IMG/VR virus record: IMGVR_UViG_2531839468_000018
Span: 1-23,016 of that record
Length of the DNA: 23,016 nt
Strand: one strand, 5' to 3'
Source of the DNA: a virus
Taxonomy: Duplodnaviria; Heunggongvirae; Uroviricota; Caudoviricetes
Shown here: positions 16,459 through 18,130 of the stretch, piece after piece
How the letters are laid out: the number at the start of each line of letters is the position of its first letter
How positions within the stretch are numbered: position 1 is the stretch's first letter
The notes under the pieces: generated by a model
Told to the model about the DNA's origin: nothing
The model's input: the letters and a program-made list of their open reading frames with translations, nothing else
Databases searched by the model: none
Made by a program: the position numbers and the translations under genes

Positions 16459-16671
16459 ATGTTGTTCTTAAATGATAAAGAGCAAATCATCAAGTATCGC
16501 GATGAAATGCTAAAGATCAATCCACAAATTACCGAAATGGTAGCTAAATACGCTGGGTGTTCTGTCGAGGAAGTAGAAAGATGTGTTGAAAAATATTTTT
16601 CTCCTTCTTCTCCGTCTACACCTTCCCTTAATGAATTAATCAAATTAAAAGCTAAGGAGATTACTAAATGA
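16459..16671 (+). CDS. Hypothetical protein (70 aa)
   Basis: First ORF after the leader terminator; stop overlaps the next start (ATGA). Confidence 0.5.
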   Translation: MLFLNDKEQIIKYRDEMLKINPQITEMVAKYAGCSVEEVERCVEKYFSPSSPSTPSLNELIKLKAKEITK

Positions 16672-17030
16672 TTATTGATTTAGACACTCTGTTTCCAGTT
16701 CGAAAGACTTTCACAGATATTGTAAGTTATTGTACTGATCCGTTTGCCTCTGTAGAAAACAAGGTTTTTGCTTCTCTTCCTGCTGATGTTGAATGCGGAG
16801 ACTTGATCACCAGCACGGGCGCTAAATATGTATCAGGAGATGATATCTATGTTGTTATGAGTGAATTTTTAACGGCTGGAGCAAACAAGCCTGTAGATGT
16901 TTTACGTAGCAATGCTGGGCTTGTATGCATTAAAGCTGATGCGCTGAATGCTGTAAGTGAAGCAGCAAAAACAGCATTAATTAAAAAAGGCTTCCAGCTT
17001 GAAGGGTTCCATTCTGTTTTCACTTCTTAA
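16668..17030 (+). CDS. Hypothetical protein (120 aa)
   Basis: ATG after TAAGGAG; translationally coupled to the preceding ORF. Confidence 0.55.
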   Translation: MIIDLDTLFPVRKTFTDIVSYCTDPFASVENKVFASLPADVECGDLITSTGAKYVSGDDIYVVMSEFLTAGANKPVDVLRSNAGLVCIKADALNAVSEAAKTALIKKGFQLEGFHSVFTS

Positions 17031-17048
17031 TAAAAGGAATAATAATAA

Positions 17049-18077
17049 ATGATTCTAGGTAATGATTACGTTGATTTAGCTCCGCTTTTCCAGGCTCATA
17101 ACACTAGAAACTATCTGCTTTCTACTCTTGATTTTACGGATTCTGTAGGGGTTACATCTCATAAAGTAGCTGTTTCCCAGCTTGTCGAAAGCAACGAATC
17201 TCTGTTCAACAAAGAAACCTCTCGTTTCTCTTCTGAACACAACGTTACTAAGCGAGAACAAGGTAAAGAATGGCTGATTGAAATCCCTTACTTCCTGCGT
17301 GAAGATGTGATCCGTCCTTCTGATGTTCAAGGCAAACGTAAACCTGGCACTGATTTTCAGGAAACACTCACTGATATTTATGCTGACTATGTTGCTAAAC
17401 ACCACGTAGCGTATCAGCGCACTAAAGAAAGCGTATTGGCTGCATCTCTGTTTAGCGGTAAAACTTACACGCCTAAAACTGATGATGTGTTAATTGAGTG
17501 GGGCAAGCTGTTTAACGTATCAGCTATGAAAGCCACTGTGAACGCTTCCAGCACTGACACCACGAAGATTTTTAAAGAATTTGATCAGATTGCTACTGAC
17601 ATTATCGAGAAAGCACAAAGCCAGGCGGCTGCTGTAGAGCGTATTGTTGTTTTCTGTAAGCCGGAAGCCTTCTCTGCAATTCGATTCTCTGCTGGTATGG
17701 CAAACGCATTCCAGTATGTAAGCCCACTGGAAGAGGGAAATGTTGTGTACCAGCGTCGTGACCTGCTACCAGGAGTGACAGCGTTCACTATTCCAGGAAC
17801 TAACATTGATGTTATTAAACTGGTAGATCCGCTACACCTTGCACATATGACCGCTGACGCTGTAGCCGTGCCTAAATTCGCTAAAGGCTCTAACGTCTAC
17901 CAGAGCATCTACGGGGCTGCTTCCAGCACCTTTGAACTGATTAATACCGCTCCTGCTGAGGTTTATAGCTACAGCTATGAATCTTCTCGTGGTGATGCTG
18001 TTAACGTTGTTACAGAGAATAGCCAGATGGTTGTAAACCACGGTGTAGGCTTCTCCGTTCAAATCACTGTTAAATAA
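17049..18077 (+). CDS. Abundant-protein candidate (342 aa); putative major virion/capsid-like protein of unrecognised family
   Basis: Codon choice visibly shifted to E. coli high-expression codons (CGT, CTG, GGT, TCT, ACT, GCT, AAC, GAA) unlike its AT3-rich neighbours; followed by a strong intrinsic terminator; function is inferred only. Confidence 0.55.
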   Translation: MILGNDYVDLAPLFQAHNTRNYLLSTLDFTDSVGVTSHKVAVSQLVESNESLFNKETSRFSSEHNVTKREQGKEWLIEIPYFLREDVIRPSDVQGKRKPGTDFQETLTDIYADYVAKHHVAYQRTKESVLAASLFSGKTYTPKTDDVLIEWGKLFNVSAMKATVNASSTDTTKIFKEFDQIATDIIEKAQSQAAAVERIVVFCKPEAFSAIRFSAGMANAFQYVSPLEEGNVVYQRRDLLPGVTAFTIPGTNIDVIKLVDPLHLAHMTADAVAVPKFAKGSNVYQSIYGAASSTFELINTAPAEVYSYSYESSRGDAVNVVTENSQMVVNHGVGFSVQITVK

Positions 18078-18093
18078 TATTTAACGTGTAATA

Positions 18094-18130
18094 GAGGCGT
18101 GGCGTGTATTCACGCTTCGCCTTTTTTTAT
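18094..18130 (+). terminator. Strong rho-independent terminator after the 342-aa gene
   Basis: GC-rich stem 18095-18106 / 18111-18122 (one internal mismatch), loop TATT, then TTTTTTTATTTATTTTTT. Confidence 0.7.

Follow-up and report, generated by a model that had tools for sequence, protein, structure and literature searches.

We conclude that three adjacent genes at 16459-18077 of a 23,016-nucleotide stretch of DNA (IMG/VR virus record IMGVR_UViG_2531839468_000018, positions 1 to 23,016; the whole stretch is referred to here as the window) probably form the module that builds the head shell of an integrative phage satellite whose helpers are lytic phages of the Stephanstirmvirinae (Justusliebigvirus and Phapecoctavirus). 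The genes lie within an element integrated in an Escherichia coli chromosome (the island), and we favor helpers of the phi92 and phAPEC8 types because the sequence at which these phages appear to cut their genome ends is present in the island as an exact copy. Our belief is evenly divided on the wider proposal that the island represents the first family of satellites to exploit lytic phages in E. coli and other Enterobacterales and that it follows a new design. Such an element would make its own shell (capsid, decoration protein, and mini-scaffold) with no portal, protease, or terminase, would be packaged via a copied terminal-repeat cleavage site held in exchangeable phi92- and phAPEC8-type cassettes, and would replace two tail-assembly proteins (tape measure and tube initiator). 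The block and its flanking signals comprise five features:

16118..16458, plus strand: structured leader of the capsid operon, with a sigma70-like promoter at 16145-16173 and a terminator-like hairpin at ~16362-16396
16459..16671, plus strand: ORF70, small helical protein of 70 amino acids (aa), tentatively a minimal internal scaffold from its C-terminal motif
16668..17030, plus strand: ORF120, gpD/SHP-like head decoration protein, 120 aa, assigned from fold, profiles, and C-terminal end
17049..18077, plus strand: major capsid protein, lambda gpE-type, HK97 fold, 342 aa, assigned from Pfam, PHROG, AlphaFold2/Foldseek, and profiles
18093..18128, plus strand: intrinsic terminator after the capsid gene (hairpin 18093-18124, then U7)

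The 342-aa protein matches Pfam family PF03864 (Phage_cap_E) over its full length (E = 3.7e-16; score, 59.5 bits; gathering cutoff, 22.9; profile positions 9-329 of 329), and the same domain is present in all 40+ of its full-length homologues. It also matches PHROG 29, “major head protein.” An AlphaFold2 model built with 19 homologues (predicted local distance difference test score [pLDDT], 60; predicted template modeling score, 0.65), in which the N-arm and E-loop were poor, was compared with the PDB using Foldseek and returned the HK97-fold capsids of PhiTE, ICP1, Sf14, Bas63, lambda, YSD1, and Chi (E = 8e-13 to 1e-5). The best matches by both structure and sequence were tailed-phage capsids, and encapsulin matches were weak and far lower in the Foldseek list. 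Based on these profiles and the model, we identify the protein as a Phage_cap_E (lambda gpE-type) major capsid protein with an HK97 fold.

An earlier annotation of the window made from the letters alone (the sequence-only reading) had placed the three open reading frames (ORFs) exactly where we find them and had guessed that the last encodes an abundant virion or capsid protein. Two of the checks that it proposed, structure comparison and Pfam/PHROG profiles, returned HK97-fold capsids only and capsid families, respectively, and together with the gpD-like gene upstream they bear the guess out. It was mistaken in describing a protein of unrecognized family with no capsid signature, given that the family is curated in Pfam and that RefSeq entry WP_000600406.1, which is the exact 342-aa protein, already bears the RefSeq/PGAP name “major capsid protein.” It had rightly discounted the string ASLFSGKT, which we rejected as a P-loop or ATPase motif because the string falls within the spine helix of the capsid and because family members do not conserve its lysine.

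Codon use sets the capsid gene apart from its neighbors, as that annotation had also noticed. The codon adaptation index (CAI), calculated with the Sharp-Li E. coli weights, is 0.454 for 17049-18077 versus 0.14-0.33 for the other 13 island genes. Recoding the same protein with island codon usage gave a CAI of 0.267 ± 0.018 (maximum, 0.334 in 2,000 draws), which places the gene ∼10 standard deviations (SD) above the island background and, despite a G+C content of 44%, on a par with the host genes ecpA (0.459), pepD (0.518), and gpt (0.524). All three genes of the block are under purifying selection, as judged from their ratios of nonsynonymous to synonymous substitution rates (dN/dS: capsid gene, 0.05-0.11; decoration gene, 0.11-0.14; ORF70, 0.13-0.54). 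Together with the codon adaptation, the capsid and decoration ratios indicate that selection acts on these genes and that they remain in use.

The genes form a compact operon in which strict translational coupling is expected at a single junction, since ORF70 and ORF120 overlap at ATGA and the capsid gene begins 18 nt after ORF120 behind an AAGGAA Shine-Dalgarno sequence; the coupling of both small ORFs to the capsid gene that had been proposed thus stands for the first junction and fails for the second. The strong terminator reported after the capsid gene is also present, with a hairpin of −21.2 kcal/mol compared with −9.2 ± 2.6 kcal/mol for shuffled sequences (z = −4.67). Upstream, the 340-nt leader is strongly structured (minimum free energy, −88 versus −58 kcal/mol; z = −6.3), and its terminator-like hairpin, ∼190 nt past the sigma70-like promoter, gives a layout reminiscent of antitermination-controlled late operons. 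The leader sequence at 16118-16458 is not conserved in divergent variants of the island, where the gap is ∼900 nt.

ORF120 had no match in Pfam, PHROG, or NCBIfam. The top eight PDB matches to its AlphaFold2 model (pLDDT, 78.6) were all phage decoration proteins, including those of Bas63, PhiTE, Sf14, and YSD1 and the SHP of phage 21, with weak E values (0.01-0.27), probabilities of 0.77-1.0, and TM-scores of 0.4-0.6. The two best PDB matches of its sequence profile were the Bas63 and Sf14 decoration proteins, its top match in the helper-phage genome was the phage decoration gene, and it shares with the phage decoration protein the C-terminal end VFTS*, where 17 nt are identical. Structural E values are weak and four independent lines agree, and from fold and sequence we assign ORF120 as a gpD/SHP-type decoration protein.

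We tentatively suggest, as an idea drawn from sequence, that ORF70 is a mini-scaffold. Its motif S-x-x-D/E-L-I-x-x-K-A-x-x-I/L-K, built from island family members only and defined after a BLAST alignment had been inspected, scored best among 91,763 positions of the six-frame-translated helper genome at the extreme C terminus of the scaffold protein, and the second-best position was also in the helper head scaffold protein. We rejected ORF70 as a scaffold homologue, as the matches of a full HMMER search over 1.8 billion proteins were limited to family members and to unrelated proteins with generic “LGVTVEEL” repeats. Many members of the ORF70 family (65-79 aa) have been named “ACP S-malonyltransferase” by NCBI, a name that looks spurious for a protein of this size.

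The link between the island and the Stephanstirmvirinae is carried by two tail genes downstream of the terminator, by the capsid itself, and by a noncoding site on the opposite strand:

18381..20210, plus strand: tape-measure-protein homologue, 609 aa (PHROG 16051; best phage matches in the Stephanstirmvirinae)
20246..20959, plus strand: tail-tube-initiator or Dit-like baseplate protein homologue, 237 aa (Pfam PF21821; 61% identical to the Justusliebigvirus tube initiator)
10207..10273, minus strand: copy of the helper terminal-repeat boundary, a putative terminase recognition/cleavage site (40/40 to phi92; bipartite motif)

The best phage matches of both tail proteins all fall within the Stephanstirmvirinae (phi92-like Justusliebigvirus and Phapecoctavirus), and these relatives are lytic E. 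coli myoviruses with genomes of 145-150 kb. The tube initiator has 61% identity to that of phage JohannJBalmer, with residues 11-34 matching at 24/24 positions, and the tape measure protein has 74% identity to its counterpart in that phage over its N-terminal 42 residues and 27% over its C-terminal 435. At the DNA level, identity to phi92-like phages is 89-93% in the first ∼70 nt of each gene (18382-18451 and 20276-20347), and the remainder is far more diverged, a pattern that points either to gene conversion in the recent past or to N termini under strong constraint. The capsid protein is only 22% identical to the helper capsid (pairwise E = 3e-9); nevertheless, the best PDB sequence match of its family profile is Phi92_gp124, over the full length (E = 2.8e-18), and the family hidden Markov model (HMM) hit the capsid gene alone in the six-frame helper genome (E = 2.2e-19). 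Island gene order mirrors that of the helper (scaffold, decoration protein, and major capsid protein, then a small gene, tape measure protein, and tube initiator), and for each of the three recognizable structural genes, the nearest or only relatives among E. coli phages are in the lytic Stephanstirmvirinae (phi92 and phAPEC8). The comparison with small phages made in the sequence-only reading is misplaced, as the gene sits in a 12-kb integrative element without most virion genes and its phage relatives are large lytic myoviruses.

When island and helper DNA were compared by short words, a perfect 40-nt match emerged in the noncoding left part of the island, at window 10207-10246, which is identical (40/40) to phi92 positions 318-357. 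The phi92 record has a left direct terminal repeat of 343 bp (positions 1-343), and the 40-mer spans its inner boundary, with 26 nt inside and 14 nt outside the repeat. Among all phage records, 62 genomes match this stretch, and essentially all are recognizable, from their names, sizes, and earlier matches, as phages of the phi92/phAPEC8 type. In Phapecoctavirus BI-EHEC, comparison of the record ends gave a 328-bp repeat that again ends inside the octamer CGCGTTAA. Phages phi92 and BI-EHEC have a common frame, GATATTT ... CGCGTTAA, around a variable, genus-specific core. In the window this frame forms the bipartite motif GATATTT-N39-CGCGTTAA at 10220-10273, which occurs once there and in none of 100 shuffled windows, and exactly once in each of 17 island loci, with its strand in every case opposite to that of the capsid genes. 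The core is of the phi92 type in the window and 12 of the 17 loci and of the phAPEC8 type in the other 5, where it matches BI-EHEC at 25/25 nt. Based on these matches, we infer that the island site is a copy of the helper terminase recognition/cleavage site, comparable to the P2 cos site carried by P4.

The DNA around the site is mosaic among variants, and we found no link between site type and capsid type: locus L007 combines the capsid type of the window with a phAPEC8-type site, and locus L002 (E. coli A33) combines a highly diverged capsid with a phi92-type site whose 40-mer is unchanged. It follows that the site behaves like a cassette that is both strongly conserved and exchangeable. In a non-E. 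coli variant (L023), a third, diverged version had no phage match and was set aside. Variants with phAPEC8-type sites have an extra small recombinase gene beside the site (L003, 5223-5774, “recombinase family protein”; L031, 264-845, a 193-aa protein with a Phage_integrase domain), which hints that the cassette may be moved or inverted by site-specific recombination.

The island occupies the thrW (tRNA-Thr) hotspot of the E. coli chromosome, flanked by proA and the yagP-paoD side. It begins directly after attL, with a separate element upstream in tandem, and its limits are direct repeats at 9057-9084 and 22456-22483 that are copies of the thrW 3′ end; its length is ∼13.4 kb, or ∼12.1 kb without an insertion sequence (IS). 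Its remaining features are as follows:

9035..9084, plus strand: attL, duplicated 3′ part of thrW; the alignment to strain MB06234 begins inside the tRNA-Thr gene
9085..9839, no strand assigned: probable attP arm (left, noncoding), 98-99% identical in all variants having the same integrase
10362..11671, minus strand: IS3-family insertion, 1,310 bp (orfA 11292-11618, orfB 10405-11292)
12499..12606, plus strand: iterons GGTAGGTCAyWGTGARCTA with 22-nt spacing, a putative replication origin conserved in variants
14261..14950, plus strand: Rep-like winged-helix replication initiator, 229 aa (Pfam HTH_36; PHROG 270/428, “replication initiation protein”)
18163..18366, plus strand: ORF67, 67 aa, in the position of the small gene upstream of the helper tape-measure gene
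21041..22318, minus strand: tyrosine integrase (Pfam, PHROG, RefSeq); the ORF could extend to 22405
22456..22483, plus strand: attR, thrW 3′ end, imperfect copy

All island genes except the integrase point rightward. The left ∼3.3 kb, which includes the iterons, is nearly free of ORFs; within it, 11672-13660 comprises ∼2 kb of conserved DNA, with the iterons inside, that has no convincing ORF or RefSeq annotation and was empty in an Rfam scan. Small ORFs lie between the iteron region and the Rep-like gene, and three ORFs of no assigned function lie between that gene and the leader. We rejected ORF67 as a counterpart of the small helper gene, to which it has no sequence similarity. Among the island ORFs, Pfam and PHROG found no portal, protease, terminase, tube, sheath, fiber, or lysis gene, in agreement with the absence of terminase and portal genes already remarked upon from the letters, and no cargo-like gene; NCBIfam named only the integrase.

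In keeping with a phage satellite in general, the island is an integrative element with attachment sites and an integrase, and it lacks a complete virion gene set and has specific components and a cis-acting site in common with one phage group. The satellite life cycle as a whole is put together from sequence. Infection by a helper would lead to excision and replication of the island, which has its own integrase and Rep/iteron replicon. The codon-optimized capsid gene would be strongly expressed, and a small shell of island proteins would be built around the helper portal, a role given to the helper because the island has no portal, protease, or terminase of its own; helper proteins would supply these three functions and most of the tail. 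The helper terminase would then package the island, as the island copies the sequence at which concatemers would be cut, the inner boundary of the terminal repeat. The island tape measure protein and tube initiator would presumably join helper tail assembly, either finishing satellite particles or sabotaging helper tails, and helper-identical N termini on otherwise diverged tail proteins fit both tail insertion and tail poisoning. A satellite that makes its own shell would explain a codon-optimized, terminator-bounded capsid operon. A small shell is plausible because the island without its IS is close in size to P4, which is ∼11.6 kb and is packaged in T=4 heads.

The island family is widespread. 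Island DNA matched 772 of 5,426 complete E. coli genomes, with at least 80% coverage in 263, and the capsid operon was present in 384 E. coli genomes. Hundreds of E. coli genomes, as well as metagenome-derived variants with an only ∼63%-identical capsid protein, keep the same 13-gene synteny with intact ORFs, and gene order is retained across variants with 63-77%-identical capsids and in L002. At 7811-8842, the otherwise syntenic L002 island encodes a 343-aa protein in the capsid slot that is 20% identical to that of the window, has no Pfam match, and has an N terminus (LITNLDLFDVQYH) resembling that of the phi92-type capsid protein. From its sequence and position, we regard L002 as a second lineage of capsid, hyperdiverged, within this element family. 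The integrase differs in some variants. Homologues of the capsid protein, decoration protein, and ORF70 are found in chromosomes of Citrobacter, Klebsiella, Enterobacter, Cronobacter, Leclercia, Kluyvera, Pluralibacter, Dryocola, Serratia, and Sodalis.

Several observations weigh against the proposal that the island is a packaged satellite. The collections yielded no copy that was free or derived from virions: the IMG/VR matches are prophage-style calls from isolate genomes, and the metagenome contigs, including a 12.3-kb scaffold, are chromosomal and give no virion form. The island has a single terminal-repeat boundary and not the whole repeat. In the window, the IS lies 115 nt from the terminal-repeat-like site and lengthens this copy of the island by 1.3 kb relative to its IS-free sister, and the copy may be impaired by it. 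We recognized no known regulator, excisionase, or small terminase gene in the island using Pfam, PHROG, PADLOC, and NCBIfam. An HMM of the ORF70 family had no match in the helper genome, and the scaffold link rests on a short motif noticed beforehand. Finally, the low identity of the two capsid proteins leaves compatibility with the helper portal, protease, and scaffold unproven.

The main rival is an island that defends its host by interfering with phage assembly, with diverged head and tail proteins acting as dominant-negative decoys, the site titrating or misdirecting the terminase, and protection rather than transfer as its chief function. We consider this unlikely as a full account but compatible with a satellite, as the two are not mutually exclusive. 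Poison subunits would need helper-identical N termini on diverged tail proteins, as seen here, high capsid expression would also suit a decoy, and known satellites interfere with their helpers; tail-assembly interference systems are reported on phage-inducible chromosomal islands (PICIs) (PMC11364771). However, a complete module of scaffold-like, decoration, and capsid proteins under strong purifying selection across genera is hard to explain without transfer, as is an autonomous replicon with an integrase. In addition, the ∼12-kb size is typical of packaged satellites, and PADLOC models of known defense systems had no match in the island.

We regard it as highly improbable that the island is a decaying prophage or a captured remnant of a lytic phage whose capsid gene is a leftover with no current function. 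Most virion genes are indeed missing, several copies carry IS insertions, and convincing ORFs are lacking over ∼3 kb of the island. However, the data on selection and conservation already largely refute this explanation: the intact 13-gene synteny extends to the divergent-capsid variants, the capsid gene has a low dN/dS and codon adaptation ∼10 SD above background, and a noncoding 40-mer is perfectly conserved amid mosaic flanks. Least credible of all is a self-sufficient mini-phage, gene-transfer-agent-like particle, or encapsulin-type nanocompartment, for which one could cite the shell protein of HK97 fold, its accompanying decoration protein, and the weak encapsulin matches far down the Foldseek list, but which is contradicted by best matches to tailed-phage capsids, by the absence of portal, terminase, protease, tube, sheath, fiber, lysis, and cargo-like genes, and by tail-gene homologues and a helper terminal-repeat site that point to helper dependence.

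The putative satellite differs from each known system with which we compared it. Capsid-forming PICIs (cf-PICIs) encode protease, portal, head-tail connectors, HNH, TerS, TerL, and alpA and have no tail genes (10.1101/2022.09.08.507074). Elements such as EcCIEDL933 resemble the island in being integrative, ∼10-15 kb long, and able to form capsids from satellite-encoded HK97-fold proteins. In contrast, the island has only scaffold-like, decoration, and capsid proteins, no packaging genes, and two tail genes, and it is linked to lytic 145-150-kb myoviruses; based on the missing protease, portal, connector, HNH, TerS, and TerL genes and the presence of tail genes, we rejected cf-PICI membership. 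P4, with its helper P2, is similar in size and likewise has an integrase at a tRNA gene, its own replicon, a copy of the helper packaging site, and a capsid-decorating protein, but it uses helper capsid protein redirected by Sid, and its cos site derives from a temperate helper. Membership in a P4-like family was rejected because sid, psu, delta, and the alpha primase were not found in the island and its site is a phi92-type repeat boundary, not a P2-type cos.

If our reading is right, PLE (helper, ICP1) and PICMI would be similar in being chromosomal islands that await and parasitize a lytic phage. They encode no capsid protein, however, have unrelated gene content, and reside in Vibrio rather than Enterobacterales hosts, and PLE, unlike the island, remodels the ICP1 coat protein with the external scaffold TcaP (PDB 8g1r); gene content rules out membership in either group. 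The Stephanstirmvirinae head module (phi92 gp124; JohannJBalmer bas62_0006-0008) shares with the island the scaffold-decoration-capsid order, the Phage_cap_E fold, the VFTS end, and homologous tape measure protein and tube initiator. It differs in that the capsids are 22% identical, the island has a 70-aa protein in place of a 371-aa scaffold, and all other phage genes are missing from the island. CpmB of SaPIs is a small internal scaffold that mimics the C terminus of the helper scaffold, and ORF70 is likewise ∼70 aa and helical, with a C-terminal motif resembling that of the helper scaffold. The two proteins have no sequence relation, the resemblance is an idea, and the partner of ORF70 would be the satellite's own capsid. 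We found no description of the island family, including by protein accession, in open-access papers and bioRxiv.

The window itself is close to strain MB06234 (NZ_CM129882), with 99.9% identity over 9035-10361 and from 11672 to the end of the window. The two departures are the tandem neighbor at 1-9034, a different, IS-rich element, and the IS3-family insertion at 10362-11671. The latter is a secondary insertion, missing from the otherwise 99.97%-identical MB06234 island, and its ALIL frameshift pseudoknot is the sole Rfam match inside the island; other island copies have IS1, IS5, IS600, or ISVsa5 at other positions. ARAGORN found no tRNA in the window because only the 3′ part of thrW is included. 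The 1-9034 element contains a gene for an NleG-family type III effector at 700-1389, transposase genes of the IS3 family and, frameshifted, of the IS66 family, and at 3735-3933 a match to the Rfam RNA IS009; this content suggests a strain of the enterohemorrhagic or enteropathogenic E. coli type, and O26 and O111 strains are among the closest full-island matches. At 15944-15983, inside a 111-aa ORF, 19 nt are exactly duplicated in tandem with a 21-nt period, which yields the repeated peptide EMLCKRV/EMLCKRE. Next to attR, at 22606-23016, is a C-terminal fragment of a LysR-family gene (a yagP-like pseudogene), which was not truncated by the island, since RefSeq marks its N terminus as lacking on the paoD side.

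The capsid annotation was already known; the satellite reading, the decoration protein assignment, and the mimicry of the terminal-repeat site appear to be new, and the element belongs to no satellite family that we found described. If the proposal is correct, a satellite can make its own shell yet borrow a portal and terminase, and the boundary of a terminal repeat can work as a portable packaging signal, neither of which is known from other satellites. The site would also pinpoint the terminase site of this phage subfamily, so far uncharacterized. The system looks experimentally accessible through strains that bear the island, such as NC101, and through the helper JohannJBalmer, which infects K-12 (recorded host, E. 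coli K-12). Phages resembling phi92 and phAPEC8 are widely isolated and are considered for therapy against pathogenic E. coli. If an island present in ∼5-14% of complete E. coli genomes is equipped to hijack or block such phages, it would affect their host range, phage therapy, and gene transfer.

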